Virus record (IMG/VR): IMGVR_UViG_3300049220_000010
Span: 1-50,316 of that record
Reading direction: 5' to 3' (one strand)
DNA length: 50,316 nucleotides
Source of the DNA: a virus
Taxonomy: Duplodnaviria > Caudoviricetes
Positions 4,346 to 43,775 of the stretch are shown one piece after another. The notes below the pieces were generated by a model. That model was not told where the DNA came from and did not search any database. It was given only the letters and a program-made list of their open reading frames with translations. The position numbers and the translations under genes were made by a program. The first letter of the stretch is position 1. Every line of letters begins with the position of its first letter.

Positions 4346-4725
4346 TTAAAAAAGCTTATGAAGACTTAGGAATTGCATGGGAATCAATAAACCATGCAAC
4401 AGATTATGACGGATGGATGTGTCTTGATAGAGTAATTATTCCTGAGATAAGCGATGAAAGCTTTGATGCTAAAGCTGGCAATTGGGTCCGCCCGAAATCT
4501 TTACACGGGGTAGAAAAAAACAACGGTTGGACTAAAATCGAAAAATGGAAGCGTATGCCAAAAAGAAGTTTTTTCTGCCAAATAATTCTAAAAAATGGTA
4601 GGCGTACAGTTGGACAATATGTTCACACAATGAATCAATTTTGCGTTCTTAGGTCCGGATATATGGATACAAGTAAAATCGCTCATTATGCTGAAGTAGC
4701 CAACAACAACGATCCGATTTATTAG
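4327..4725 (+). CDS. Hypothetical phage protein
   Basis: 132-aa ORF overlapping the previous stop; RPKSL..NNGWTKIE motif. Confidence 0.7.
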   Translation: MEKNEVIKKAYEDLGIAWESINHATDYDGWMCLDRVIIPEISDESFDAKAGNWVRPKSLHGVEKNNGWTKIEKWKRMPKRSFFCQIILKNGRRTVGQYVHTMNQFCVLRSGYMDTSKIAHYAEVANNNDPIY

Positions 4726-4759
4726 CCCTATGCTGCTCAAAAAGTTCATAAAATAAACC

Positions 4760-4790
4760 TTTGTGGAGTATTTTACTATAATTAAATTTG
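4760..4790 (+). promoter_or_regulatory. Sigma70-type promoter
   Basis: TTTG 4760-4763, 19 nt, TAAATTTG 4783-4790. Confidence 0.55.
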
Positions 4791-4799
4791 TAACCCGCT

Positions 4800-5009
4800 A
4801 TGAAAGAAAAGGTTCTGCAATTACTAATTGATAAACACATTAAAAGTGGAGGGCATAATGGATACTATTTACCGAAATTAATAAGTGATGCCGAGTCGAA
4901 TTACAACGAAGTAAGAAAAGCAATAAGCGAAATTCACAAAGATGGATTATTAAAAACGGCTGATGGAGCTCATGGAGTATTAATTTTATACAAACCCCCG
5001 ACAAAATGA
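4800..5009 (+). CDS. Small winged-helix DNA-binding protein
   Basis: Pattern LPKLISDAESNYNEVRKAISEIHKDGLLK followed by a beta-hairpin. Confidence 0.55.
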   Translation: MKEKVLQLLIDKHIKSGGHNGYYLPKLISDAESNYNEVRKAISEIHKDGLLKTADGAHGVLILYKPPTK

Positions 5010-5548
5010 ATCAAGTAAAAGAGTTTATCGAATATATTTTCAATGCAATAAAAATTTGGATAATAATCCAACCGTGGCAAAGCGGAGTAAGAGTTCGAAT
5101 GGGTAAGAACGTTAAGAAATTAGATTCTGGAATGCATTTCCGTATTCCTTATTTTGACAGCGTTTTTGTTCAAGAAACACGTCTTCGGGTTGTTGAATTA
5201 CCTATGCAGACAATTACAACTTCTGACGGGAAGACAATCACTTTAAACAGTGCAGCAGGCTATGTGATTGCCAATGTAGAAAAGCTATATAAAACACTCT
5301 ATCACCCTGAGACAACTATAAGAAACATCATTATGTCTGCTGTTGGTGAGTTTTGTTATGGCAAAGAATTAGCTGCGATTGAAAAGAAATTGCTTGAAGG
5401 TTATGTAATTGACAAGCTAAACGAACACGATTACGGTGTAAAATTTGAATATTTTAAAATAATGAATTTTGCAGTCGTTAGAACCTACCGATTAATTCAA
5501 GACACGACTTGGAGTTGGGAAGGTTTAAACCTAGATACAAAGAAATAG
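5006..5548 (+). CDS. SPFH/Band 7 domain protein
   Basis: IIQPWQSGVRVRMGK..GMHFRIPYFDSV..QTITTSDG motifs. Confidence 0.8.
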   Translation: MNQVKEFIEYIFNAIKIWIIIQPWQSGVRVRMGKNVKKLDSGMHFRIPYFDSVFVQETRLRVVELPMQTITTSDGKTITLNSAAGYVIANVEKLYKTLYHPETTIRNIIMSAVGEFCYGKELAAIEKKLLEGYVIDKLNEHDYGVKFEYFKIMNFAVVRTYRLIQDTTWSWEGLNLDTKK

Positions 5549-5550
5549 AT

Positions 5551-5706
5551 ATGGTAGAGACGAAAACTTACTTAGTTTTTGATTTAGACAAAAAACAACC
5601 AATAAGCAAAACTGAAAAGAAAATGCTAATTGTTTATGAAGATCAATTAACTATAATCAAATTTGAAGAAATAAAACAAAATGGAATAACCAAAATCAAG
5701 CTCTAA
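5551..5706 (+). CDS. Small hypothetical protein (MVETKTY...)
   Basis: 3' part of ORF 5509..5706, starting just after the SPFH stop. Confidence 0.5.
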   Translation: MVETKTYLVFDLDKKQPISKTEKKMLIVYEDQLTIIKFEEIKQNGITKIKL

Positions 5707-5709
5707 AAC

Positions 5710-7041
5710 ATGGAGGACTTTCAGGGTAAATACAAAAAACAATTCAATTATATTGTTAGTCATTATCAATTCCGTTTTAATGTTGTTACCTCGTTTTATG
5801 AATACAGAAAGCTCGAAACCGCAAAACCAAACCAAAGAAAACAAAACCGAAGTACCAAACTGGGAGGACCTTGGAGAAAGTACGACGACAGAGTTAGAAA
5901 TCATATTCTTTTGGAATTAATGGAAAAAGACTTAGATATTTCACAAGACAAATTTAATATATTTATCGAAAGTGAAATCGTAAGTGCAGACTATAACCCA
6001 TTTTTAGAATACTTTGAGTCTTTGCCTGAGTGGGACGGGAAAACAGATTACATTGAACTACTTTCGAAAACCGTTAAGACGTTTGATGTAGAACATTTTA
6101 AAAGTACGCTGCAAAGATTTTTTGTTGGAACACTGGATTGCCTATTGGAAGAAGATGCTGTTAATGATGTTTGTTTAGTTTTTCAGTCCGAACAGGGTGT
6201 CGGGAAAACAAGGTGGATGCGTTCATTATTGCCTGAAAAATTTAGAAACGAATATCTTTACGAAGGTAATATTGATACTAAAAACAAAGATCATACCATG
6301 TACTTGAGTCAGTATTGGTTTATTCATTTGGACGAGTTGGAAACACTGAAAAGCAATGATATTTCAGCAATTAAATCTTTTATTACAAGACAGCGAATAT
6401 CCGTTCGTAAAGCGTTTGGAAGATACAAAACAAATTTCATACGGCGTGCTTCTTTTTTAGGCTCTGTAAATGATGATAAGTTTCTAACAGATATTACAGG
6501 AAATAGACGTTGGCTTGTTTTTAAAGTAACAGACATTGATTACGAACACGAAGTAGACGTTGACAAAATGTGGGCTCAGGTTTATTATCTTTGGAAGCAA
6601 GGATTTAAACACTGGTTTGACATTACCGAAATTAAGGTAATTAACAAAATAAACGAAGAATTTAGGTCAATGAGTTTAGAAGAAGAAATGTTGCTTCAAT
6701 TTTACGAATTTGACTATCCGGAAAACGGAAGAGGTGAATACGTTGGTAGTTTCGACGTGTTAACCGAATTAGGAAAAGTCCATGCTCATATGCTGAATAA
6801 ACTTAATTCAAATACTATGGGTCGGGCGTTGGCAAAGCATTCAAAAGACAAAAAACGTCGACAGGGTGTGTCGAAATACTACGTAGTTTGGAAGGGTCCT
6901 GACTTAGATAAAGACACCGATCCAAAATTGCGTGATGAAGAAGCTTTACAAATACTGGAGAAAGAAAGAATGGAAAAACCATTAATCGAACTTCCAAAAC
7001 AAACTTATAATCCGTCCGATGAAGACGAGATGCCTTTTTAA
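5710..7041 (+). CDS. VapE/VirE-like P-loop helicase/ATPase
   Basis: LPEWDG; QSEQGVGKT Walker A; LDELE Walker B; FLTDITGNRRW; acidic tail DEDEMPF. Confidence 0.9.
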   Translation: MEDFQGKYKKQFNYIVSHYQFRFNVVTSFYEYRKLETAKPNQRKQNRSTKLGGPWRKYDDRVRNHILLELMEKDLDISQDKFNIFIESEIVSADYNPFLEYFESLPEWDGKTDYIELLSKTVKTFDVEHFKSTLQRFFVGTLDCLLEEDAVNDVCLVFQSEQGVGKTRWMRSLLPEKFRNEYLYEGNIDTKNKDHTMYLSQYWFIHLDELETLKSNDISAIKSFITRQRISVRKAFGRYKTNFIRRASFLGSVNDDKFLTDITGNRRWLVFKVTDIDYEHEVDVDKMWAQVYYLWKQGFKHWFDITEIKVINKINEEFRSMSLEEEMLLQFYEFDYPENGRGEYVGSFDVLTELGKVHAHMLNKLNSNTMGRALAKHSKDKKRRQGVSKYYVVWKGPDLDKDTDPKLRDEEALQILEKERMEKPLIELPKQTYNPSDEDEMPF

Positions 7042-7067
7042 TCTAATTTTAAAAATAATAAAGAATT

Positions 7068-7724
7068 ATGCATTATCAAACAGACTTCCAACTAGGAGAA
7101 AAAGTTCAAAATTACTTAATTGACAAAATGGTAGAGACGCCAATGGTAACCCACAATAGCATGGATTGGGAAGGACGTTATAGAGCCGTTGAAAGCGCAT
7201 TTACTGGCATTATGCAGGTCCTTGGTCTGGACCTTAATGACGACAGTTTAAAAGACACTCCGAAACGTGTTGCCAAAATGTATTTACAGGAAATTTTTTA
7301 CGGTTTAGACTACCATAACTTTCCAAAGTGTACAGCAGTTATGAACAAAATGAACCACGACGAAATGGTAATCGAAAAGGACGTAACTGTAAGCAGCACA
7401 TGCGAGCATCATTTTGTCACAATCGATGGCTTTGCAAAAATCGCTTATATTCCAAAGGATCACGTTTTAGGGCTTTCAAAGCTTAACAGGATTGTAGATT
7501 TTTTCAGCAAAAGACCACAAATTCAAGAAAGGTTAACGGAACAAATTTACCATGCCCTTTCGTTAATCCTGCAAACAGAAGATATTGCGGTTGAAATTTC
7601 TGCTGTTCACCATTGCGTAAAAAGTAGAGGTATCAAAGACACAAACTCCTATACAATCACTCGAAAATTAGGAGGCGCATTTATGCGACAGGCTACAAGA
7701 AATGAATTTTTAAACTCTAAATAA
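7068..7724 (+). CDS. folE: GTP cyclohydrolase I
   Basis: TPKRVAKMY, CEHHF, GLSKLNRIV..RPQIQERLT and HHCVKSRG motifs. Confidence 0.95.
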   Translation: MHYQTDFQLGEKVQNYLIDKMVETPMVTHNSMDWEGRYRAVESAFTGIMQVLGLDLNDDSLKDTPKRVAKMYLQEIFYGLDYHNFPKCTAVMNKMNHDEMVIEKDVTVSSTCEHHFVTIDGFAKIAYIPKDHVLGLSKLNRIVDFFSKRPQIQERLTEQIYHALSLILQTEDIAVEISAVHHCVKSRGIKDTNSYTITRKLGGAFMRQATRNEFLNSK

Positions 7725-7730
7725 ACAATT

Positions 7731-8183
7731 ATGTCAAACTTTAAATTAAACGATTTATCTAATAACATTCACAAACAAAACGTAAAAAAAGGATTTTACG
7801 AAGATTATGAAGATATTAAAAATGCGATATACAGATCAGGTGACGACCAATTAATTCCAGCATTTGAACAGACTTTTTCTGCTCAAAGATATGCTTTAAT
7901 TCATTCTGAAGCTACAGAAGCATTAGAAGCAATGAGGAGCAACAAATTGTTAGACGACAGAATAAACGGAGAATGGAAGGAAGGTCTTTTAAAAGATGAT
8001 GATAAAACTTTTCAAGGTCTTTTTCAACACATGGTAAAAGACACTCAAGAAGATGAATTAGCTGACGTGTTAATTCGTGTTTTGGATTACGCAGCCTTTA
8101 AAGGAATCGATTTAGATTTCCACGTTGAAGCAAAATTAAGATATAATGCTTTAAGACCACATAAGCACAATAAATTGATTTAA
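7731..8183 (+). CDS. MazG-like nucleotide pyrophosphohydrolase
   Basis: LIHSEATEALEA..EDELADVLIRVLD..KLRYNALRPHKH. Confidence 0.85.
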   Translation: MSNFKLNDLSNNIHKQNVKKGFYEDYEDIKNAIYRSGDDQLIPAFEQTFSAQRYALIHSEATEALEAMRSNKLLDDRINGEWKEGLLKDDDKTFQGLFQHMVKDTQEDELADVLIRVLDYAAFKGIDLDFHVEAKLRYNALRPHKHNKLI

Positions 8184-8184
8184 A

Positions 8185-9051
8185 ATGAAATACTATACAG
8201 CAGTCGTTTCAGACGACGAAATAAACTATGCAACCATTATTCCACCGAATAATATACTGGCTTCTTATCATTACTTTAAAAACAAAATCGACGTAATAAG
8301 AAAGAGCGTATTCGATGGACACGACGTATTTATTGACTCGGGTGCGTTTTCTGCCGAAAGTCTTGGAAAACCTATTGATATAGACGATTACTGCAAGTTC
8401 TTAAAAGAGTGCGGTGCGACTTATTATGCATCACTTGACGTAATAGGCAATGCGAAAGCCACAATGGAGAATTATGACTATATGGTTCAAAAATACGACT
8501 TAAAGCCAATTCTAACTTTTCACATGGGCTCGCAAATGGAAGACTTAGATAAGGTTTTGAATGTTCCTAACCTTAAATATATGGCACTTGGTGGGCTGGT
8601 GTTTAGTTCAGGAGTTACGAGTCATTGTGATGAAGTTTGGGGCTACATTTTAAGACACAAACCGAACATTAAGGTTCACGGCTTTGGGTTGACAGATATT
8701 GAAGCAATGAAGCGTTATCCATGGCATTCGGTTGATTCAAGTTCATATAAATCGTGCAGGCGTTTTGGTAGACAAAATATTCTTTTCAATGGTTTTGACT
8801 TTAAAACTATACCTGAAAAAGAATATCTGCAAATTCTTAAACGTATGGGTTATGATTTTCCCGAAGACACCAGCGAACTAAGCAAAGAAGAAAAAACTGC
8901 ACTCAATAAACGCAAATATGCTGCTTATGATCACCATTCGGCATATTCTTATAAATTGTTTGCCGCAATGCTTGGAGAACGAAATAAAAGCCGAGATTTT
9001 AGTTATCTAACAGCTCAACAAAAACTATTCCCTGACGATTTCGGCATGTAG
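8185..9051 (+). CDS. dpdA: TGT-fold DNA guanine transglycosylase (DpdA-like)
   Basis: FIDSGAFS, LDVIG, FHMG, ALGGLV, VHGFG and SVDSSS motifs; lies next to folE and near queCDE. Confidence 0.8.
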   Translation: MKYYTAVVSDDEINYATIIPPNNILASYHYFKNKIDVIRKSVFDGHDVFIDSGAFSAESLGKPIDIDDYCKFLKECGATYYASLDVIGNAKATMENYDYMVQKYDLKPILTFHMGSQMEDLDKVLNVPNLKYMALGGLVFSSGVTSHCDEVWGYILRHKPNIKVHGFGLTDIEAMKRYPWHSVDSSSYKSCRRFGRQNILFNGFDFKTIPEKEYLQILKRMGYDFPEDTSELSKEEKTALNKRKYAAYDHHSAYSYKLFAAMLGERNKSRDFSYLTAQQKLFPDDFGM

Positions 9052-9569: not shown

Positions 9570-9824
9570 ATGAACAAACAATTAAAAGGCAAAACGGTAA
9601 TAGTTACCACTGAAGCCACAACAAAAAGAGGTCGAGTTATTAAGGCGACAATGAAAGTAGATTCGCAAGCAAAGAATCACATTTACATTCGAACCGAAGC
9701 TAACAGAGATTACAGAGAGTCGAAAATTCATTTTAGTCATATAGATGAATTAAGAACGTTTAAAAAGATGATTGAAGAACTGGAAACAGAATACGAAAAT
9801 CACAAAAAATTCCTTAACAAGTAA
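9570..9824 (+). CDS. Hypothetical protein in a stand-alone unit
   Basis: 84-aa ORF between a promoter and a terminator. Confidence 0.8.
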   Translation: MNKQLKGKTVIVTTEATTKRGRVIKATMKVDSQAKNHIYIRTEANRDYRESKIHFSHIDELRTFKKMIEELETEYENHKKFLNK

Positions 9825-10724: not shown

Positions 10725-11351
10725 ATGAGAAACTTAGTAAAATTCGCACTTGATTATTCAGTAGCAGTAACTGAAGATGATGTTTTAGAGCTTGGTTATG
10801 ATGTAACCGAAGAAGATTTTAAAGCATACTTCGAAATCCCTGAAGACGCTGCAACATTGCCAGCTTACAAAAAGCATGAAGACTTCGATCCGAACAGTAT
10901 GAAGCCTTTTATGAACACAGAAGAAATCGAAGGTTACTTTATTACTGGAGAAAAAGCAGCACCTGCGGAGGAAAAACCGAAAAAACAAACGGCTGCTGAA
11001 AAGAAAGCTGCTAAAGAAGCTGAAAAGAAAGCTAATGCAGACAAAAAAGCCGAAGAAAAAGCTAAATCACAATCGGAGCCAAAAGAGAAAAAACCCGGAG
11101 TAATCGCGTCTATTTTAGATATTATTACTAAGGCTACCTCTCCAGTTTCAGAAGCTCAAATTTTGGAACAATTGGTTAAACTATTTCCTGAAAGAGAATC
11201 GGCTGCTATGGCAAAAACCGTAAAAGCTCAATTAGGAGGAAAAAATCAACCTTTAAGAATGGAGGAAGAAAAAGGAGTAAAATTCGTTCTTACTCTAACT
11301 GAGGCAAAAGAAGGAGAAAAACAGCAAAGACTTTATGCCATCGCGAAATAG
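10725..11351 (+). CDS. Protein with acidic N-domain, Lys/Ala/Glu linker and C-terminal winged-helix-like domain
   Basis: ATG 10725 after the promoter; C-domain is paralogous to 45865..46278. Confidence 0.75.
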   Translation: MRNLVKFALDYSVAVTEDDVLELGYDVTEEDFKAYFEIPEDAATLPAYKKHEDFDPNSMKPFMNTEEIEGYFITGEKAAPAEEKPKKQTAAEKKAAKEAEKKANADKKAEEKAKSQSEPKEKKPGVIASILDIITKATSPVSEAQILEQLVKLFPERESAAMAKTVKAQLGGKNQPLRMEEEKGVKFVLTLTEAKEGEKQQRLYAIAK

Positions 11352-12150
11352 AAGAATTGCTGTAATATCATTGTCAGGAGGATTAGATTCCTCCTGTCTT
11401 TTGATAAGACTTTTATCTCTTGGTTATGAGGTCCATGGAGTTTCTTTTGATTATGGTCAAAAACATAAAATCGAATTAGTTAAACTCCAAAAAAATCTAA
11501 ATTTTTTAAGAGGTAAATATCTTCAATTACATAGCTATAATGTCTTAGATTTGTCAGCAGTTGGCAAACTTTTCAATTCGTCGCTAATTAACAGCGAACA
11601 AATTGTTCCGGAAGGACATTATGAAGAAGAAAACATGAAATCTACCGTTGTTCCAAACAGAAACATGATCTTTGCATCAATTATTCAAGGTTTGGCTTTG
11701 TCTATTGCAACAAAAGAAAATGAACTTGTTGAAATAGCATTAGGAGTCCACTCGGGAGACCATGCAATATATCCAGATTGTACGCCTGAATTTTACAGGC
11801 TTCAAGAAATGGCATTTAAAGCCGGAAACTGGAACGCCAATTCAGTAATCTACCAGCTACCATACATTCAAGGAAATAAGTCTACTATATTGCAAGACTT
11901 TTTCTACCACGCTGGAAGACTTGGACTGTCTAAATCAGAACAGGACCTATTTTTATCTCAAACACATACTTCTTACAATCCAGATTTGTTTGGAAGAAGT
12001 TCAGGAACATCAGGAAGTGACATTGAAAGAGTAGAAGCTTTTTTAAGTCTTGGATTGGTTGACCCTGCCGAGTATGTTAACGGATGGGAGTGGACTAAAA
12101 ATCACGTTTTAGAAATACTAAATAATCGCAAAAATGGCGCACACAATTAG
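11335..12150 (+). CDS. queC: 7-cyano-7-deazaguanine synthase
   Basis: SGGLDSS, FDYGQKH, VPNRNMIF and DHAIYPDC motifs. Confidence 0.95.
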   Translation: MPSRNRRIAVISLSGGLDSSCLLIRLLSLGYEVHGVSFDYGQKHKIELVKLQKNLNFLRGKYLQLHSYNVLDLSAVGKLFNSSLINSEQIVPEGHYEEENMKSTVVPNRNMIFASIIQGLALSIATKENELVEIALGVHSGDHAIYPDCTPEFYRLQEMAFKAGNWNANSVIYQLPYIQGNKSTILQDFFYHAGRLGLSKSEQDLFLSQTHTSYNPDLFGRSSGTSGSDIERVEAFLSLGLVDPAEYVNGWEWTKNHVLEILNNRKNGAHN

Positions 12151-12493
12151 CAAAGAATTTCATTTCTCTGCATCACACATTCTTAAAAATCTACCGGAAG
12201 GACATCCGTGTGGAAGAATGCACGGTCACAATTACGTTGTAACAGTTTTCCTTAAAGGAGAACCGGACGAAAAAGTTGGCTTTGTGCAAGACTACAAAGA
12301 CTTAAATCCTATTAAAGAATACATTGATAAAATGTTAGACCATCAACACTTAAACGACGTTTTTCATTGGTTTAACCCAACCGTTGAGAACATGTCAAGG
12401 TATTTGTTCGAAATGTTTAAAAAAGAATTTCCTTTGCTTACTGCAATAGAAATGTCTGAAACGCCGAAAACAAATTGCCGATATGAGCCGTAA
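12134..12493 (+). CDS. queD: 6-carboxy-5,6,7,8-tetrahydropterin synthase
   Basis: FSASH..CGRMHGHNY..LDHQHLN..PTVEN..ETP. Confidence 0.95.
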   Translation: MAHTISKEFHFSASHILKNLPEGHPCGRMHGHNYVVTVFLKGEPDEKVGFVQDYKDLNPIKEYIDKMLDHQHLNDVFHWFNPTVENMSRYLFEMFKKEFPLLTAIEMSETPKTNCRYEP

Positions 12494-13010
12494 CAAAAGA
12501 GTATTCTTTATAATGGCTTATTTGATTGCGTTGGTTGCGGCAAACTTAATCGTTAAGCATTTTGGACCTTTTGGATTATGGTTTTCGTCTGCTTTTCTTA
12601 TACCTTTCGACTTTATTTGCAGATGCATATTTCATGAAACATGGAAAGGTGGAAAATTAGTATTGAATTTAATTCTTTTAACTATTTTCTCAGGTGTAAT
12701 AACTTTTGTAATGAATGAAGATGCTTTAAATATCGCATTGGCTTCGTTCGCAGGAATTGTTTCTGTTCAAATATTCGCAGGTTTATTTTACCAATTATTT
12801 AAGAAAAAATCTTTTATGATAAAAGTAAACTTGTCGGATTTGGTTGCAATTGTAGTTGACTCCATAGTTTTTCAATTGGTAGCTTTTCAGGCAATTAATT
12901 TAGAAGTAACTGGAGGTCAAATCCTAATTAAAATGATTGGCGGTTTGTTTTGGTTCTTTATAATTTTTAAACTTTTTAAATTCAATCCTAATGGCAAAAC
13001 AGAAAATTAA
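12483..13010 (+). CDS. yhhQ: VUT/YhhQ-family preQ0/preQ1 transporter-like membrane protein
   Basis: Multi-TM protein with VAANL, IALASF and VDSIVF; embedded between queD and queE. Confidence 0.75.
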   Translation: MSRNKRVFFIMAYLIALVAANLIVKHFGPFGLWFSSAFLIPFDFICRCIFHETWKGGKLVLNLILLTIFSGVITFVMNEDALNIALASFAGIVSVQIFAGLFYQLFKKKSFMIKVNLSDLVAIVVDSIVFQLVAFQAINLEVTGGQILIKMIGGLFWFFIIFKLFKFNPNGKTEN

Positions 13011-13701
13011 TACAGAACATTTGAGTATATCGGAAAAGTTTTACTCTATACAAGGAGAAGGACGCACAATGGGATTTCCTGCAATATTTTTACGCCTATC
13101 GGGTTGTAACTTATTATGTAAGTCAGACGATTGGATTTGTGATTCGATCGAAGTTTGGAAAAAGGGCATAAAAACAACGTTTGAAGATGTTTTTGATCCT
13201 TTAGATATAGAACGTTTAAAAAATGGAGTTCATTTAGTAATAACAGGCGGAGAGCCGATGTTGCATCAAAATCAAATTATTGAATTCTTCAAATGGTTTA
13301 GAGAAGAGCATGGATTTAAGCCTTACATTGAAGTTGAAACAAACGGAACAGTTTTGCCGGAAAGAGCTTTGTATCTGTATATTAACCAATGGAATGTTTC
13401 ACCGAAACTTTTGAACAGTGGTGAGGATTTTGACAAACGTTTTAATCTTCAAGTTCTTAAAACATTAAATGGAACCAACTCAATGTTTAAATTTGTTATC
13501 AAAAACGAACTGGATGTAATAGAAATTTTCACAAATTATGGCTTTTTGAAAAAACAAAAAATCTATCTTATGCCAGCAGGTGCAACCCAAGAAGAACTTA
13601 ATGCAGTAAGGACAGATGTTATTGAGTTGTGTAAAAAATACATATTGAAATACACCGAGCGACTACACATTGTCGCATGGAACAAAAAAACAGGAGTATA
13701 A
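12991..13701 (+). CDS. queE: 7-carboxy-7-deazaguanine synthase (radical SAM)
   Basis: FYSIQGEG, RLSGCNLLC..CDS, ITGGEP, VETNG and VSPK motifs. Confidence 0.95.
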   Translation: MAKQKINTEHLSISEKFYSIQGEGRTMGFPAIFLRLSGCNLLCKSDDWICDSIEVWKKGIKTTFEDVFDPLDIERLKNGVHLVITGGEPMLHQNQIIEFFKWFREEHGFKPYIEVETNGTVLPERALYLYINQWNVSPKLLNSGEDFDKRFNLQVLKTLNGTNSMFKFVIKNELDVIEIFTNYGFLKKQKIYLMPAGATQEELNAVRTDVIELCKKYILKYTERLHIVAWNKKTGV

Positions 13702-14878: not shown

Positions 14879-15135
14879 TTTCACATATAAAAAATATTTT
14901 CACTATTGACCGTCCTGCACAAAGGAAAAGAGTAGTGAAAAATTGCGTAGATTTATTGTTCGAGTCTTACATTGGCAAAGATAAAATTTCACCATTGGAA
15001 ACATCTTTAGCATTGAATGAGATTAGAAAAGAAGTTTTTGAAAGACTTGTAAAAACAAGAAAATTAAAAGAAAGCGAAATAGAAGCATTAACATTTTCTT
15101 TACAAAACATTGAATACAATGACACGGCAAAATAA
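14869..15135 (+). CDS. Hypothetical protein
   Basis: 88-aa ORF overlapping the previous gene. Confidence 0.7.
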   Translation: MSVISHIKNIFTIDRPAQRKRVVKNCVDLLFESYIGKDKISPLETSLALNEIRKEVFERLVKTRKLKESEIEALTFSLQNIEYNDTAK

Positions 15136-15140
15136 TAAAT

Positions 15141-16892
15141 ATGAAACAAAAACAAGTTAAAATCATTGGACTTTCGATTAACGAAAAGTTCGGGAGTTTA
15201 AAAGCTGTTAATTTAGGGTTTGATCCTGAAAACAAACTTACTATTATTAAAGGTGAAGTTGGTGCAGGAAAAACAACTTTACAAAAGGCTTTAAAACTTA
15301 CAACTCAAGGGTCACAAACATTATTGGATAAAACTCTCTTAGGAGACAATATTGATATTGTTGCACAGCTTCTAGATGGAGACACAAAAGTTTTCGTCGC
15401 CTGTAAAAGTAATTCAAGCGGTGGTTTAGATTACTTTATTTACACAACTGACGAAGACGGGAAAAAGATTAATAATCCTGTTATTGATGGCAAAAAAGCA
15501 ACTCCAGCAGGTTATTTAAAAACACTTCAAACAGCTTTAACATGGAGGTTAAATGAATTAACCAGTGAAAACCCAACTACACAACGAGAAATTTCGTTGG
15601 AAATGTATAAGGAAGAACTGGAGAAGAAAGGCGTTTATCTCAACAAGTCGCATCCTAAATACGTTGACAGTATTTTGGACAAAATCGAGAAAGCAAAAGA
15701 TAAAAGGAACTATTTAGACATGAAGCGTAAAGAAGTCGGCGGTATTGCTGACGATATGCAGAAAAAGTCTATTGATTTTTCTGGACGTCGGGAAGTTAAA
15801 GATTTAACCGAAATAAACAAGCAAATAGCTGAAAAATCGGCAGAAATTACTTTGGCGGCTACGAATGTTAAACAATCAAGAGATAACAAGCTTTTGAGCA
15901 TTAAAAACAAAGGTTTAGAGCTTGCTGCCAAATTAAAAGCACAAAACGAAGCTATTCAATCCCACAACCGCAAAGAAAGCAACAAAGAAACGGTTTATAA
16001 ACAAAGCATAAGCGTTTATAACAATGCAGTAAAACAAGCGAGAGAACAGCTTAATCCTATTTTAAAAGAAGACTTTGAAGAATACTTTTGGGACGATTTT
16101 ATCAGCGACCAAACATTAGAGCCTCAAAAACCAGTTCTTAATCTTAAAAAAGAGCTAGAGTTTAATGAAAAAGGAACCTGCATTTCAAAGGTGGAAGATT
16201 TTGAAGAAGAAGAAATAAAGCAACTTTTAACAGAATATAAGCAGGTTGCAGTTGATTACCAAACTTTATTCAATACTCCTATCGACGAAGTAGATACTTC
16301 CAATGAAAAAGCAGAGCTTGAAAAATTAGAGGCGAAAAAACAACGTTATGTTGAATTTAATGCAGATGCTCAAGCAGTAAACTCTTTTTTAGACTGGAAG
16401 GAACAAAACGAAATAGTTAAAGAAATGAAGAAAAATTACTTCATGAAATTAACTGAAATCGATACTGGTGTTGAAGGTCTTTATATTTGCCCCGAATACG
16501 AAATAGTCAACGATGAAAAAATTGCCAAAGAAAACGACATTTACTTGATGTATGATGGTAGTTATGATCCTGAATATTTTTGCAATCCAAATAAAGAACT
16601 TAGAAAATTAGCTTCTTATTCTGATACGCAAAAACCAATGATTTGTCTATTAATTCAAAGGTACTTATTGAGCAAAAAAGAAAAAGCTTTGCCATACTTA
16701 TGGATTGATCAGGTTCCAATTGACAATAAAACGAAATTATTGCTTGATAGAATGTCTAACGAATTAGGGCTTTGGCTCTTCGTTAATTGGACAGGTGACT
16801 TTGACTACGATAGTCTAAAAGATGGAGAAGTTTTGATTGAAAACGGTGAAGTATTTGGCAAACCAGTAATTACAGAAAATGAAGATAATTAA
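15141..16892 (+). CDS. SMC/Rad50-like ATPase with central coiled coil
   Basis: GEVGAGKTT Walker A; long coiled coil; YSDTQ signature-like and LWID Walker B-like motifs. Confidence 0.8.
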   Translation: MKQKQVKIIGLSINEKFGSLKAVNLGFDPENKLTIIKGEVGAGKTTLQKALKLTTQGSQTLLDKTLLGDNIDIVAQLLDGDTKVFVACKSNSSGGLDYFIYTTDEDGKKINNPVIDGKKATPAGYLKTLQTALTWRLNELTSENPTTQREISLEMYKEELEKKGVYLNKSHPKYVDSILDKIEKAKDKRNYLDMKRKEVGGIADDMQKKSIDFSGRREVKDLTEINKQIAEKSAEITLAATNVKQSRDNKLLSIKNKGLELAAKLKAQNEAIQSHNRKESNKETVYKQSISVYNNAVKQAREQLNPILKEDFEEYFWDDFISDQTLEPQKPVLNLKKELEFNEKGTCISKVEDFEEEEIKQLLTEYKQVAVDYQTLFNTPIDEVDTSNEKAELEKLEAKKQRYVEFNADAQAVNSFLDWKEQNEIVKEMKKNYFMKLTEIDTGVEGLYICPEYEIVNDEKIAKENDIYLMYDGSYDPEYFCNPNKELRKLASYSDTQKPMICLLIQRYLLSKKEKALPYLWIDQVPIDNKTKLLLDRMSNELGLWLFVNWTGDFDYDSLKDGEVLIENGEVFGKPVITENEDN

Positions 16893-17484
16893 CGGACACA
16901 ATATGGAAATTAAGCATTGGAAAGAAGTTGTCTCCAACGATTCAATGCGACCAGTAATGACAGGAGTTTACTTTGACTTAATTAATCATTGTATGGTAGG
17001 AACAAATTCACATTTGCTTTTAGAATGTCCAATTGATATAGAATTTACAGAAGAAGAAAAGATAATGCAAAAAGACAAACTCGCTGAACTAATGCAACAA
17101 CAATCAAAAATTGTTCCAATTGAGTTTTTTGATAAAAGAAAATACATGGGTAATTGGAAAGATTACTGGAATCCAGAAATTACTTATGATTTAAGTGACG
17201 ATAATTATGCTCATGTTTTAAATAACGGAGAAGTTGTTTTCAGGTGCAGGTATATTGATGGTAAATTTCCAAATTATAAAGCAGTTTATCCTAAAGGGCA
17301 GACAGCGATTGATTCAATAGGCATTGACATTAGCATGGCTCAAAGAGTCTACAAAGCCATTCCTTTTCCAAATCCATATAAAGCACTTCATTTCAAATTC
17401 TTTGCAAAAAATAGAGGTATAGTTTTCCATAATACAACAGAAAAAAGATTTAAGGGAATAATAATGCCAAATATAGGAGATTGA
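16879..17484 (+). CDS. Short DNA polymerase III beta-clamp-like protein
   Basis: VSNDSMRPVMTGVYF, VGTNSHLL, RYIDGKFPNYKAVYP and terminal GIIMP, as in DnaN domains II-III. Confidence 0.75.
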   Translation: MKIINGHNMEIKHWKEVVSNDSMRPVMTGVYFDLINHCMVGTNSHLLLECPIDIEFTEEEKIMQKDKLAELMQQQSKIVPIEFFDKRKYMGNWKDYWNPEITYDLSDDNYAHVLNNGEVVFRCRYIDGKFPNYKAVYPKGQTAIDSIGIDISMAQRVYKAIPFPNPYKALHFKFFAKNRGIVFHNTTEKRFKGIIMPNIGD

Positions 17485-19108: not shown

Positions 19109-19632
19109 TGAGCAAACAAAACGAAGAAATAAAACTCGTTTATCAATTTAAATCACGAGAAGAATGGGTTCAAGCAATGCAATTTGAACCGAACCCTAAT
19201 TGGGTAAAAACGCGTGAGTTAGGAAGTGGTAAAAAATCAACTTATATACCGCTTCCAATTCAACAGGCATTGGCAGATAAATTTTATCGAGAATGGGACG
19301 TAGTGCAAGAAGAATATCAACTTATAACAAATGAAATTCTTTGTACGGTAACAATTGAATATTTACCCGATTATCCATTTTCCGAACATCGAAAAATGAC
19401 TGGTTCTGCATCTAAACCAATTCAGCAAAATCAAGGAACTGCTGCATCTTTATATCCGGACGGCAAAAAAACAAACGCCCTTGAATATAATGGACCAGCC
19501 GCTCGAGCTTCTGCTATTTCAAATGCATTTACAACAACTGCGAATATCTTTGGTAGAAATTTAAGCCGAGATATTAAATCTAACTTCTCGTTTATAACAG
19601 AAAAAGAAAAAGAAAATGGAAGTAAAGAGTAA
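19108..19632 (+). CDS. Rad52/Sak-like single-strand annealing protein
   Basis: YIPLP..W..CTVTI..GSAS..AISNA..FGRNL pattern; adjacent to exonuclease and SSB. Confidence 0.65.
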   Translation: MSKQNEEIKLVYQFKSREEWVQAMQFEPNPNWVKTRELGSGKKSTYIPLPIQQALADKFYREWDVVQEEYQLITNEILCTVTIEYLPDYPFSEHRKMTGSASKPIQQNQGTAASLYPDGKKTNALEYNGPAARASAISNAFTTTANIFGRNLSRDIKSNFSFITEKEKENGSKE

Positions 19633-20725
19633 TGAAATAAAATATTCTGATATTGAATTAAATATTCAGATTGCAGACGACGAAGATATTCAGCATGTTG
19701 AAGAAGCTTTACAAAGAACAGAGACATGGCAAGAAGAAAGACGAGGTAATTGGACCGCTTCGCAATTCAAAAATATGATGGCTTCGGATAATGCAGGCGG
19801 AAAATTAGATTGGTTTGACAAAGAAAAAGTTTTTCGTTTCAGCGAAGGTGCAATTAAATATATCTACGCTAATGCAATGGAGAGAAAAACTGGAAGATAT
19901 ATTGTTTCTGACTCTACAAAAGAAATGAAATACGGAACCAAAATCGAGCCTTTAATTCATAGGCGTTTTGAAGAATATTTAAAAAACAAAGGTCTTAGAT
20001 TAAGACAAGTCGGATTTAAAACTTTCGACAACATTCCGACCGCTGGAGTTAGTTCCGATGCAATTGTTGAAACTTTGCAAAATGAAATTGTTGCATCAGC
20101 AGAATATAAAGCATGTTCGAGTTGGACTACTCTTTTTGAACGTACATACGAATCAATGGACGAAAAAGGAAAGGATTTTTGGCAAACTCAAGGTCAAATG
20201 GAAGCTTGGAATGTAAGTTCAAATTACTATGTAGTAATTAGCCCACCAAAAGATATAAACGCTTATCTTTATAGCGATAATGTAATGGAGCTTTACGATC
20301 AATGGACTAACGAAACCGAAATGGAAGTTCAAATTGTTAAAAAAAGTCCAATTCATTGCAAGGCTTTAATCAAAAGAATACAAATATGTGAATCGGTTGT
20401 TGATAGATTTTTAAGCGAGGAAACCAATTTAACAATTAGAGACATTTTGTTTGAAGAGATTGATTACTTCAAAGGTTACTGGGAGACAGATACGGATGAT
20501 TTATTGGCTTTAAAAAAGAGCCTTGATTCTGGTGAGTTGCCGCCTGTTAAAGAAAATATTTTCGCGAGAAAAAACAGAGAATTAAGAGAGCAAAAAGAGT
20601 CTGCGGAAAAAGAAGACCCAACCAAACTATTCAATATACCGGAGACAGTTCCGGAACCAATAGAAGAAATTATTCCCGTAAAAAAAGGCGTTACGGAAAT
20701 AGACATGGACAATTTGCCTTTTTAA
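19616..20725 (+). CDS. YqaJ/lambda-exonuclease-like recombination nuclease
   Basis: WQEERRGNWTASQ, MKYGTKIEP, VSSDAIV..EYKA and QTQGQM motifs. Confidence 0.85.
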   Translation: MEVKSNEIKYSDIELNIQIADDEDIQHVEEALQRTETWQEERRGNWTASQFKNMMASDNAGGKLDWFDKEKVFRFSEGAIKYIYANAMERKTGRYIVSDSTKEMKYGTKIEPLIHRRFEEYLKNKGLRLRQVGFKTFDNIPTAGVSSDAIVETLQNEIVASAEYKACSSWTTLFERTYESMDEKGKDFWQTQGQMEAWNVSSNYYVVISPPKDINAYLYSDNVMELYDQWTNETEMEVQIVKKSPIHCKALIKRIQICESVVDRFLSEETNLTIRDILFEEIDYFKGYWETDTDDLLALKKSLDSGELPPVKENIFARKNRELREQKESAEKEDPTKLFNIPETVPEPIEEIIPVKKGVTEIDMDNLPF

Positions 20726-20746: not shown

Positions 20747-21151
20747 ATGGCTAAAAAAACATTCTCAGGTAGCATTGCATTGACAGCAATGAAATTCGTA
20801 AAAATGCGAGGAAAAGGACAAAACGGTCCAGTTGATGGAATTTTTATTCCAATCGAAGCAAACAAATTAGTAGTAGGTAAAGAAAAAGACGGTGTTACTC
20901 CTGTCTATATGCCAATCCGTTTTCAATACAACTCCGAAGCCGATACTTATGGTCAAAATGGTTTTGTGGCAAAATCTGTTTCTTCAGACGAGTATAAAGC
21001 AGCAGACACGGACGCGAAAAAAGAAGCTTTAAAAGAGTTTCAGCCAATCCTTGGAAATCTTAAAGAATTCACGAGCGATGGTACTGCAAACGATGCAGCC
21101 GGAGCCGCTTCTACTGAAACATATACACCTGACGACGATTTACCGTTCTAA
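20747..21151 (+). CDS. Single-stranded DNA-binding protein
   Basis: GIFIPIEAN..PILGN core and C-terminal DDDLPF tail. Confidence 0.75.
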   Translation: MAKKTFSGSIALTAMKFVKMRGKGQNGPVDGIFIPIEANKLVVGKEKDGVTPVYMPIRFQYNSEADTYGQNGFVAKSVSSDEYKAADTDAKKEALKEFQPILGNLKEFTSDGTANDAAGAASTETYTPDDDLPF

Positions 21152-41288: not shown

Positions 41289-43775
41289 TTAGTTGTAAAC
41301 ACGGACTTCAAAAGTTCCGAACTCGCCAGTTAAATCAATCTTGTTTCCAGTATCGCAATCTTGAACAGTTACATAAATTGAGTTATCGTTTGCCCTTCCT
41401 GCGACAAGACATTTCATCGGTCCTATGCCTGAATTTCCTTGGCTTATAGACGCGAATACCGCAACCTTATCAATCGGGAAAGCTCCATTAAGAGTACCTA
41501 TATATTCACCTACGTTTGTTCTCGCCCAAACTATTGCTCCAATATTATTTTCTAAAACTACGAAATTCGGCGATGGAGTTGGTGTTCCTCCAGCTCTTAA
41601 TAAACAAACATATGAAGTGTATGGTCGAATATTTGCGGCAATTTGGTTATCAACATAAATTTTTTGAGTATAATCTAAATTATCAATATTTGCACTTAAA
41701 TCATAGTTGGCTGTTAAACCTCTTGATGTTGTTGGTGTTACAATCTGGATTCCAGTACTTCCGACAACAAGTCGAGATGATGCCGTTGTGACGGTATCTA
41801 ACGATCTGATATCTACTTCACCATCACCAAGTCTTACCCAATTTTGATAACCGAAATCCATATCGTCTCTTCTTAGTCCAACAGCATTACCAACTCTAAT
41901 ATCTCCTGACATTTCGGGAACATTCTCCCCTGAAAGTCTAAGAAAGTTGTCGGTTAAGTATTTCTTTTGAACGTAATCATTATCTAAAATATTTGCTCCG
42001 TAATAAGCTGCTCCGGTAATACCTCTTGAAGATGTTGAGGTGGAAGACACGTTTATTTGAGTTGGTTCAATTTGAAGAGTTGTTTTAAATCCTCCTCCAC
42101 CGGTATCTTCACAATAAATTTCAACAAGACCGTCTTTAAAACCAACAACGCTGTCTGAATTAAATGTGTCGTTTTGGCACATTATTCCAACATTATCGGA
42201 AAATCTTAAATAACCTGTAATATTTTGCGAAGTTCCAGTATATGGAATATATGTATCTTCTGCATCAGTTATTGTTAAATAAGAAGATAGGTCTACAAGC
42301 CCTGAAAGTTTATCCCATCCAGGACTTGACGTTCCGTTAATGTTTTCAACCCAAACATAATTCTCTCCAGTGTCTAAAATATTAAAAACCATACCTTCAA
42401 TATTTGTCTCAGGCGGTCTTGATATTAAGTCAGCATAAGTTGGCAACGATCCAGCTGTCTTATAAACGCTGGACAACATTGAATCAATTTGAGTGCTGTT
42501 GTAATAATTTTGAAATAAAAATCCTCTCTGTACATAATCGAAATTTGAGGTCATAGTATATAAATGAGTACCCCTGATTCCTGTTGAAGGATCAATTAGT
42601 ATATCGTTCACATTCGTACCAGCGTTTCCAACGACAATATATCCATTAATTCTAAACCATCTATCAACGAAGTCACCAGTCACCAAAGCTCTCGAAAGCT
42701 GACCCTGTTGCGGGGAACCAATTGTTCCTTCTTGAGTATCATCAGGTCCGTAACCGCTTAATGTATTGTTGTTATGTATGATTAATTTATTGCTAATTGC
42801 TGCATCGTTGAATCCAGCCCCAATTCCAAAAATAATATTGTTTTGACCCGTAACTCCTTGTCCTGAAAAAGAACCCAAGAATAAATTTCTGTCGCCCATT
42901 GCGGTCGTGTTTCCAGCCTTATAACCAATAAGAGTATTTAGGTTTGAATTTGAGTTATATCCAGAATAAGTTCCGATATAAGTGTTCTTATATCCTGTTG
43001 TATTTTCATTTCCAGACTGCATTCCAGTGAAAACATTGAAATTTCCAGTCGTGTTTTTCTGTCCTGTTAAACCACCTAAGAAAATATTTCTTTTTCCGGT
43101 TGTTGTTGTTTTTCCAGTAAATACTCCTATTCCAATATTATACTCTCCTGATGTTAAGCTTTGTAAAGCTCCATAAGACAAAGAGACGTTATATAATCCA
43201 GATGCTGTTTGACTAAAATCTCCAAAATAATAAGAATAAGTCGGCAAATGAACGCCTATTGCTCCAATTGGACTTCCAGTGTCTGGAGTTGTACCACTTG
43301 AAAGAAAAGAAATTGGTTTGCTTGAATAACTTCCACGAATTGCAACATCATTCAATTTATCTAATGAAGCGAAAGAACTTCTATCTACTAATGCAGGAAC
43401 TCCTTCGGGTGTTGCCACAAAAACTTTCGTAAAAGAAGGGTCTGCTACACCTGCTCCATTTATCCATTCAGATTCGGTGTCTGTTACTTGATACATGTAA
43501 ACGCCAACTCCTGTCGGTGCTTGGATACCACCTGAAATTCCTAAAACTGTTTTCCATAAAACAATTTCTTCAGCAGATAAATTACTAGCATCTTTCAATG
43601 CAAAAGTTCCTCCTTTTATCACCTCACCAATATACAACCAATTTAAAGTACTATTGAAAGGTGCATTTATTCCGCTCTTATTAATATAATAAGAATTTCC
43701 TTGATATACAATGTCGCCGACTTTATATCTTCCGTTCGGGGTCCACTCTTTAGCTGTTAACAGGTTTTGGCTCAT
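41289..43775 (-). CDS. Large fibre-like virion protein
   Basis: N-terminal W..YKVGDIVY..W carbohydrate-binding-like module; Asn/Gly beta-solenoid repeats; three RG..DY(V/T)Q repeats. Confidence 0.6.
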   Translation of the reverse strand: MSQNLLTAKEWTPNGRYKVGDIVYQGNSYYINKSGINAPFNSTLNWLYIGEVIKGGTFALKDASNLSAEEIVLWKTVLGISGGIQAPTGVGVYMYQVTDTESEWINGAGVADPSFTKVFVATPEGVPALVDRSSFASLDKLNDVAIRGSYSSKPISFLSSGTTPDTGSPIGAIGVHLPTYSYYFGDFSQTASGLYNVSLSYGALQSLTSGEYNIGIGVFTGKTTTTGKRNIFLGGLTGQKNTTGNFNVFTGMQSGNENTTGYKNTYIGTYSGYNSNSNLNTLIGYKAGNTTAMGDRNLFLGSFSGQGVTGQNNIIFGIGAGFNDAAISNKLIIHNNNTLSGYGPDDTQEGTIGSPQQGQLSRALVTGDFVDRWFRINGYIVVGNAGTNVNDILIDPSTGIRGTHLYTMTSNFDYVQRGFLFQNYYNSTQIDSMLSSVYKTAGSLPTYADLISRPPETNIEGMVFNILDTGENYVWVENINGTSSPGWDKLSGLVDLSSYLTITDAEDTYIPYTGTSQNITGYLRFSDNVGIMCQNDTFNSDSVVGFKDGLVEIYCEDTGGGGFKTTLQIEPTQINVSSTSTSSRGITGAAYYGANILDNDYVQKKYLTDNFLRLSGENVPEMSGDIRVGNAVGLRRDDMDFGYQNWVRLGDGEVDIRSLDTVTTASSRLVVGSTGIQIVTPTTSRGLTANYDLSANIDNLDYTQKIYVDNQIAANIRPYTSYVCLLRAGGTPTPSPNFVVLENNIGAIVWARTNVGEYIGTLNGAFPIDKVAVFASISQGNSGIGPMKCLVAGRANDNSIYVTVQDCDTGNKIDLTGEFGTFEVRVYN

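Follow-up and report, generated by a model that had tools for sequence, protein, structure and literature searches.

The window analysed here is the whole viral record IMGVR_UViG_3300049220_000010 (Duplodnaviria; Caudoviricetes), a stretch of 50,316 nucleotides that is about 98% complete by estimate and carries structural genes of the myovirus type. The gene dpdA, located at 8185..9051 on the plus strand, encodes a 288-amino-acid 7-deazaguanine DNA transglycosylase (DpdA) with the fold of the tRNA-guanine transglycosylases (TGT), and its product ends in ...RDFSYLTAQQKLFPDDFGM. Near this end lies the pentapeptide QQKLF, a clamp-binding-like peptide encoded at 9016..9030 on the plus strand (CAA CAA AAA CTA TTC, for Q278 Q279 K280 L281 F282). 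Comparison with homologues showed that the C-terminal Q-x-x-L-F of DpdA is a genuine and strongly conserved terminal motif, beyond what chance would give. A preliminary description of the sequence had read the peptide as a means by which DpdA rides a beta sliding clamp, and that reading is partly supported by the sequence comparisons reported below.

The DpdA enzyme and its C-terminal motif

The open reading frame (ORF) at 8185-9051 is a DpdA/TGT-type enzyme with the TIM-barrel TGT fold. Its matches among the PHROG profiles were phrog_887, labelled 'queuine tRNA-ribosyltransferase' (3.3e-43), and phrog_7068 (8e-27); there was no match in Pfam-A at E<=0.01 and none in a sequence search of the solved structures in the PDB. 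The AlphaFold2 (AF2) model, built with 64 aligned homologues, had a mean predicted local distance difference test score (pLDDT) of 93.9, and the best Foldseek matches of this model were all tRNA-guanine or archaeosine transglycosylases (1iq8_A at 1.3e-6; TM score by query 0.54-0.63). Residues D51, D85 and D184, candidate catalytic aspartates, were invariant in the 64 aligned sequences. On tblastn, the protein matched products annotated as DpdA or '7-deazaguanosine inserting enzyme' in 233 phage records. The same search with the C-terminal ~80-93 residues gave no match in phage records, and by this measure of sequence the tail region is without a counterpart in cultured phages. A scan of genome contigs for prophage relatives produced distant DpdAs alone (<=45% identity).

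Two sets of homologues were used for the tail. The close set came from a word-indexed search that gave 654 homologues at E<=1e-3, the best 120 of which (51-95% identity) were examined, and the distant set came from an exhaustive profile-free search that gave 4,606 homologues, represented by the best 150 cluster representatives (~30-54% identity). The pattern Q..[LM]F was present within the last 12 residues of 102 of the 120 close homologues, and F was the final residue in 82 of the 102. Eight more had near-motif tails, in which F was replaced by L or I in seven (QQKLL, QQKLI) and L by F in one (QLKFF). Neither pattern was found in 10 of the 120, namely two incomplete entries, four of the nearest relatives, two proteins with Q shifted by one residue and two without Q. 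Among the distant representatives, Q..[LM]F occurred within the last 12 residues of 29 of 150 against an expected 0.29, a figure obtained from 10 occurrences of the pattern at 41,633 internal positions of the same 150 proteins. When the 165 window ORFs of at least 50 amino acids were screened, the motif was found in the last 15 residues only in DpdA and in an antisense ORF (15023-15235); among the real gene products of the window, DpdA alone has the motif near its C-terminus.

The conserved C-terminal segment, as seen in an alignment of 119 of the close homologues, is F272-S-Y-L-T-A-Q-Q-K-L-F282 (8998..9030, plus strand), with conservation of 1.00 for F272, 1.00 for L275, 0.93 for Q278, 0.90 for L281 and 0.94 for F282. 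The preliminary description had placed QQKLF near the DpdA C-terminus, which is exact in the translation of 8185..9051, and its expectation that QxxLF would recur at the C-termini of phage DpdAs is strongly borne out by these values. The chain mostly stops at F282, and later positions are filled in at most 21% of the 119 homologues. In the window protein, six further residues (PDDFGM; 9031..9048, plus strand) form an acidic extension that is followed by the stop codon. Such an extension after LF was confined to the nearest sub-clade, where P0001 and P0003-P0005 read KLFP[DE][DE]F and P0002 reads KLFDELF. Judging from these sequences, the tail of the nearest sub-clade may be in transition towards another way of docking, or towards a bipartite one. 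Across clades, the terminal LF is kept while the sequence upstream of it differs.

In the AF2 model, the mean pLDDT was 97 for residues 261-270, 84 for residues 271-280 and 49 for residues 281-288, with residues 285-288 below 50. Short helical turns were present at 273-275 and 278-281, and five residues fell in the pLDDT band of 50-70. The drop over residues 281-288 suits an unpacked tip. Because F272 and L275 are both invariant and confidently modelled, the enzyme probably holds the tail in place as far as about residue 277.

For clients of the bacterial beta clamp, a review gives the consensus QL(S/D)LF 'at their C-terminus' (PMC9690074). QQKLF agrees with it at positions 1, 4 and 5 and has Q, not L, at position 2; the clamp-type likeness of QxxLF proposed earlier thus fits the published consensus. 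A comparison was also made with DNA polymerase IV (Pol IV) in five Bacteroidota genomes, found by way of a Paludibacter metagenome-assembled genome, which may not be the host's. The five best IMS-family (Pol IV-like) matches in these genomes end in ...VQLKIPFEEFENE, ...VQLKIPFKEFEDQ, ...VQLKLPFKEFEKD, ...VQLQFEF and ...EQLKLPF. Tails of this kind hold a Q-L-x-[IL]-P-F peptide close to the C-terminus, and often a few acidic residues come after it, an arrangement that closely resembles QQKLF-PDDFGM. Pol II and UmuC also belong to the bacterial beta-clamp clients with a C-terminal motif.

The preQ0 gene module and the candidate clamps

The genes around dpdA lie on the same (plus) strand. A MazG-like pyrophosphatase is encoded directly 5' of dpdA (7731..8183; phrog_9236 at 4.6e-24 and phrog_3301 at 5.2e-21), next to FolE (GTP cyclohydrolase I), the enzyme of the first step of preQ0 synthesis (7068..7724; PF01227 at 7.5e-60). 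On the other side of dpdA are QueC (11335..12150; PF06508 at 4.1e-35, phrog_1550 at 7.3e-38), QueD of the PTPS family (12134..12493; PF01242 at 2.5e-30), a Vut_1 family membrane protein (12483..13010; phrog_4899 at 9.5e-25, and PF02592 at 5.4e-6, which is barely past the cut-off) and a QueE-like radical SAM enzyme (12991..13701; phrog_2076 at 2.3e-56). The Vut_1 protein is possibly a preQ0 transporter, by analogy with a gene of the same module in Escherichia phage CAjan that is annotated as 'putative preQ0 transporter'. FolE, QueC, QueD and QueE are all encoded within 5.5 kb on the strand of dpdA, and the enzyme is a phage DpdA accompanied by a complete preQ0 pathway. In relatives of the window clade, a small protein with the C-terminal helix-turn-helix of DnaA (PF08299) is encoded just 5' of FolE (L075 8756-9193, L076 8411-9016 and L077 8753-9184), and in L075 an ATPase gene matching AAA_15 adjoins it.

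The window terminase showed 53% identity to that of Cellulophaga phages of the phiSM group and 47% to that of Flavobacterium columnare phages, and from these relatives the host of the phage is likely to belong to the Flavobacteriia. A megablast of 8 kb of the window against phage records gave no match. The replication genes of the window encode VapE-like and AEP-type primase proteins, an SNF2-type helicase, an exonuclease and an AAA_23 ATPase. No polymerase was among the PHROG and Pfam matches of the window, and the profiles of DNA polymerases A, B and III-alpha (PF00476, PF00136 and PF07733) had no match in the 98%-complete record. With no detectable DNA polymerase of its own, the phage should be copied by the host replisome, through the host polymerase and clamp.

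Several of these proteins have acidic ends like the tip of the single-stranded DNA-binding protein (SSB): the VapE-like protein (5710-7041, plus strand) ends in ...SDEDEMPF, the YqaJ-like exonuclease (19616-20725, plus strand) in ...IDMDNLPF, and a 134-amino-acid protein matching phrog_18029 (20747-21151, plus strand) in ...TPDDDLPF. The last of these may, from its sequence, be a phage SSB. Helicases elsewhere end in ...DLDDDIPF (gp44 of Pseudomonas phage NP1) and ...EDPDYVPF (gp48 of CAjan).

The preliminary description had also pointed to a beta-clamp-like protein at ORF 16879. Clamp homology is real here, although the protein has a two-domain form of 201 amino acids (16879..17484, plus strand) and is not a full three-domain clamp; it is a candidate phage-encoded partner of DpdA. 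Among PDB sequences it matched 8dt6_A, the DnaN of Elizabethkingia, at 1.9e-8. A profile of its family (17 sequences of 179-206 amino acids) was aligned by hhalign to a Bacteroidota DnaN profile with a probability of 98.6% over DnaN 147-254, which is domain II; this DnaN was chosen by its similarity to ORF 16879 and may not be the host's. The Pfam match to PF02767 (1.1e-3) was under its cut-off. The AF2 model had a mean pLDDT of 90.4, and VIA of this model against beta clamps gave Z of 11.6-14.9 over ~175 aligned residues, the best being 7evp_A (Z 14.9, rmsd 3.0, 176 aligned), where residues 1-201 of the model span beta residues ~127-366. The profile of the N-terminal domain I of DnaN (PF00712) had no match in the whole record, and together with the span of the structural alignment this gives a protein of domains II and III without domain I. 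Its elements TNSH, FPNY..V.P and C-terminal IIMP align with TDSH, YPNY..VIP and MPV of DnaN, and the family-invariant residues include these elements. The DnaN elements are presumably those that line the peptide pocket in Escherichia coli beta. The label RusA-like resolvase, which came with phrog_3007, was discarded, as the evidence of 8dt6_A, hhalign and VIA points to a beta-clamp homologue. As modelled, a protomer of two domains might in principle assemble into a PCNA-like trimer, or it might serve as a free-standing peptide-pocket module. The gene of the 583-amino-acid AAA_23 (SbcC/RecF/SMC-like) ATPase (15141-16892, plus strand) runs 14 nt into the start of the beta-like gene, an arrangement that suggests an ATPase plus clamp-like pair.

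The closest viral-contig relative (L074, 65% identity) has both dpdA and a gene of the ORF 16879 type. Two complete relatives, G404 (57.9 kb) and G405 (55.6 kb), have DpdAs that are 46-47% identical and end in ...QHKMF and ...QHKLF, respectively, and neither genome had a match to either clamp profile, to PF00476 or to PF00136. Since these genomes keep the motif without a clamp-like gene, the only clamp common to the window clade is that of the host. On this pattern of genes the most likely partner of the DpdA tail would be host DnaN, with the ORF 16879 protein as a second candidate.

Genes after dpdA in other lineages

A total of 108 loci (28 genome contigs and 80 viral contigs) were examined with hidden Markov models of two clamp alignments and with two phage clamp proteins as queries. 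Usable loci numbered 93, each with a complete DpdA C-terminus and with either at least 2.5 kb downstream or an adjacent clamp gene. A beta-clamp-like gene (236-366 codons by open-frame length) was located after dpdA on the same strand, at -121 to +1837 nt, in 68 of the 93. By type of tail, the adjacent clamp gene was present in 47 of 54 loci with Q and LF, 16 of 18 with LF but without Q, 5 of 14 with other tails and 0 of 7 with a W..RG.W tail; all LF-type tails together accounted for 63 of 72 loci.

NP1 and CAjan share the order dpdA, a 317-amino-acid 'DNA polymerase processivity factor' and DNA polymerase. Their DpdA tails are ...RARIQELF (NP1) and ...RDRVMELF (CAjan), and their processivity factors end in ...VGMRL or ...IGERV. 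In NP1, dpdA and the clamp gene share one boundary base, and in CAjan they are separated by a 75-codon ORF. Among the large ORFs after clamp genes, 33 of 55 had [LIMAV]G[LFIM][FWY] among roughly their first 30 residues. A polymerase after the clamp gene typically has M(A)R.D..G[LFM]FW.D at its start and a stretch rich in Pro and Lys after it, as in NP1 (L072 8274-10454) and CAjan (L073 684-2669). By sequence, this N-terminal peptide is probably clamp-binding, which would make it a second client peptide flanking the clamp gene.

A different gene was found after dpdA in the W..RG.W clade. Scans covered 10 loci, consisting of nine of the ten loci with a W..RG.W tail (L100 was left out as identical to L094) and L084, whose regular-expression class is 'other'. 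A ParB_N gene encoding a protein of ~170-220 amino acids lay right after dpdA in 7 of the 10 (L079, L087, L094, L096, L111, L113 and L125), one of them below the Pfam cut-off; of the remaining W..RG.W scans, the next ORF was without a Pfam match in two loci and the contig ended in one. The phage phiSM has the same arrangement, with its ParB_N gene gp51 after dpdA (L069 35631-36095). By analogy, the ParB_N gene of the W..RG.W clade is likely the phage counterpart of bacterial DpdB. In the window, no match to ParB_N was found among the plus-strand ORFs scanned between 672 and 22055, a scan that ran without ORF 9570-9824. Near the W..RG.W-type dpdA of L096, a 1,160-codon ORF (4648-8127) has intein, Hint and LAGLIDADG homing-endonuclease domains. 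Taken with the DpdB analogy, the finding of either a ParB_N or a clamp-like gene after dpdA indicates that this slot tends to hold a DNA-encircling partner.

A tree was made with IQ-TREE, first quick and then careful, from 94 DpdA cores from which the last 20 residues had been removed. It split into a group of 77 rows, whose tails are LF-type and in which a clamp gene mostly adjoins dpdA, and a group of 17 rows without an adjacent clamp gene. The 17-row group consisted of the clade of the window, with its QxxLF tails, and the W..RG.W clade.

The motif as a proposed clamp tether and its relation to known systems

We give a probability of roughly 55% to the reading that the C-terminal QxxLF of DpdA is a sliding-clamp tether. 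DpdA would exchange guanine in double-stranded DNA for the preQ0 made by FolE, QueD, QueE and QueC. Its flexible tip would insert in the hydrophobic pocket between domains II and III of a clamp on phage DNA, and the tethered enzyme would then be held on, and carried along, the newly replicated DNA and could replace guanines efficiently. The binding, the choice of clamp and the coupling to replication are steps that we infer from the conserved peptide and from the genes beside it.

Several observations weigh against the tether. The clade of the window itself has the motif but no clamp gene adjoining dpdA. On the tree, tail and clamp adjacency change 10 and 7 times, with 4 supported independent pairs and a median p of 1 in the sign test, and with so few independent contrasts the correlation between tail and clamp adjacency is not independent of ancestry. 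The association of LF tails with an adjacent clamp gene (63/72 vs 0/7) was accordingly dropped as statistical evidence after the tree test, and only the conserved gene order was used. In 4 of the 5 nearest relatives (P0001, P0003, P0004 and P0005; 69-95% identity) Q278 is replaced by V or I in tails of the form A[VI][ED]KLFP[DE][DE]F, and the Q is missing in two further close homologues and shifted by one residue in another two. The second residue of the motif is Q, T or another, and the L of the consensus was found in just 11 of 131 motifs. The phage phiSM encodes a full beta clamp of 360 amino acids, yet its DpdA ends in ...YRGTTWNK without the motif; phiSM was rejected as a model for the window DpdA, its own enzyme falling in the W..RG.W clade. 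Phage DpdAs reportedly modify plasmid DNA in E. coli without phage partners, in the 2019 work of Hutinet et al., and if so a clamp would help but would not be required. Finally, the invariant F272 and L275 and the spacing F-x2-L-x2-Q-x2-LF, in a stretch modelled at pLDDT 84, fit packing on the enzyme.

The last of these points belongs to the view that the conserved tail has a structural role within DpdA itself, being packed on the TIM barrel, forming a homodimer contact or covering the DNA- or base-binding site like a lid. Enzymes of the TGT type act as dimers; the conserved positions come every three residues, the helical turns at 273-275 and 278-281 fall in or at the edge of the well-modelled stretch 271-280, and Q278 is dispensable in the nearest relatives. 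We nevertheless consider a structural role unlikely, as pLDDT goes down to 49 over 281-288 with five residues at 50-70, and as W..RG.W clades without the motif share the same catalytic core. Moreover, in very different clades nothing but the terminal LF is retained, behind linkers that are unrelated (...PDQLGLF, ...HRVQELF, ...KGFGL), which is typical of a linear motif.

Equally doubtful is the proposal that the motif binds the phage's own two-domain ORF 16879 protein instead of the host clamp, with that protein serving phage enzymes as a platform or mini-clamp of their own. This protein spans beta domains II and III, the site of the peptide pocket, its pocket elements (TNSH, FPNY..V.P and the C-terminal MP) are family-invariant, L074 has both genes, and phage-encoded clamps adjoin dpdA in other lineages. 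Against this, G404 and G405 are complete and keep a QxxLF tail without any clamp-like gene, and ORF 16879 is without domain I and is encoded 7.8 kb away from dpdA. Docking of the tail on a partner other than a clamp (the AAA_23 ATPase at 15141-16892, the primase or helicase, an SSB-like protein or a host protein) seems improbable: C-terminal peptides are widely used by this phage, as the SSB-tip-like ends of VapE, the exonuclease and ORF 20747 show, the window DpdA adds acidic PDDF after LF and its clade has no clamp gene beside dpdA, but the pentapeptide matches the clamp consensus and is unlike the acidic SSB tips, only the nearest sub-clade has the acidic extension, the most regular dpdA neighbour elsewhere is a beta-clamp homologue (68 of 93 loci), and no other gene was seen to co-vary with the tail, though no systematic search was made.

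The sliding-clamp tether can be placed in a wider and more tentative scheme. Bacterial DpdA needs DpdB, a ParB-like ATPase that is modelled as closing round double-stranded DNA (PMC10164549). The DpdA family might generally need a DNA-encircling partner, and phages might have swapped the ParB-like DpdB for a sliding clamp reached by a C-terminal peptide, which would be phage-encoded where it adjoins dpdA and a hijacked host DnaN in phages without a polymerase; we regard this scheme as possible but less likely than not. A clamp tether would link phage DpdA to the need of bacterial DpdA-DpdB for a DNA-bound partner, and it offers a handle of five residues for mutagenesis.

In another paper of Hutinet et al., 7-deazaguanine insertion by phage DpdA is described as post-replicative, the insertion efficiency of DpdA subfamilies ranges from <0.1% to 100%, and the phiSM DpdA1 is inactive in E. 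coli (PMC10516641). A clamp tether would answer how DpdA processes guanines genome-wide, why its efficiency varies and why some DpdAs are inactive in E. coli. If the tether is real, 7-deazaguanine insertion would be physically coupled to the replisome, explaining modification of the whole genome fast enough to escape restriction, and DpdA would be a new kind of clamp client that adds a DNA hypermodification enzyme to the list. CAjan in E. coli, with its order of dpdA, clamp and polymerase, is an experimentally tractable system for the idea. The literature search, conducted outside subscription-only papers and supplements, found no paper linking DpdA or 7-deazaguanine to a clamp, processivity or the replisome, in agreement with the preliminary description, whose author was not aware of such a coupling.

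Among known systems, the bacterial beta-clamp clients (Pol IV and others) are like DpdA in having Q-x-x-L-F at the very C-terminus or close to it, preceded by a variable linker and conserved from ortholog to ortholog; they differ in that the carrier here is a DNA base-exchange (hypermodification) enzyme and not a polymerase, ligase or repair protein, and in that position 2 is rarely L. The bacterial Dpd system uses the same enzyme family for inserting preQ0 into DNA, with the partner DpdB modelled as encircling double-stranded DNA (PMC10164549), whereas the window had no ParB_N match in the scanned ORFs and no partner gene adjoining dpdA, and the proposed partner would be a replicative clamp reached via a peptide tag, with no ATPase. 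The DpdA1 of the Queuovirinae (CAjan, NP1 and the 9g group) has a 36-38% identical core, the same preQ0 gene set and an LF-ending C-terminus, but those phages encode the 317-amino-acid processivity factor and DNA polymerase after dpdA, while the window phage is without a polymerase or an adjacent clamp gene.

Two phage systems come closest to the proposed mode of action. The alpha-glucosyltransferase of T4 with the gp45 clamp represents the same idea of a phage hypermodifying enzyme riding a clamp, so that modification runs alongside replication, although the enzyme and clamp families are different; that interaction was proposed in vitro and, according to a 2025 preprint (10.64898/2025.12.06.692756), was not reproduced, which makes the precedent disputed. 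MuC of phage Mu is reported to enlist the host beta clamp for transcription (PMC12867686); it is a transcription activator and not, like DpdA, a DNA-modifying protein, but it shares with the present proposal the use of the host clamp by a phage protein.

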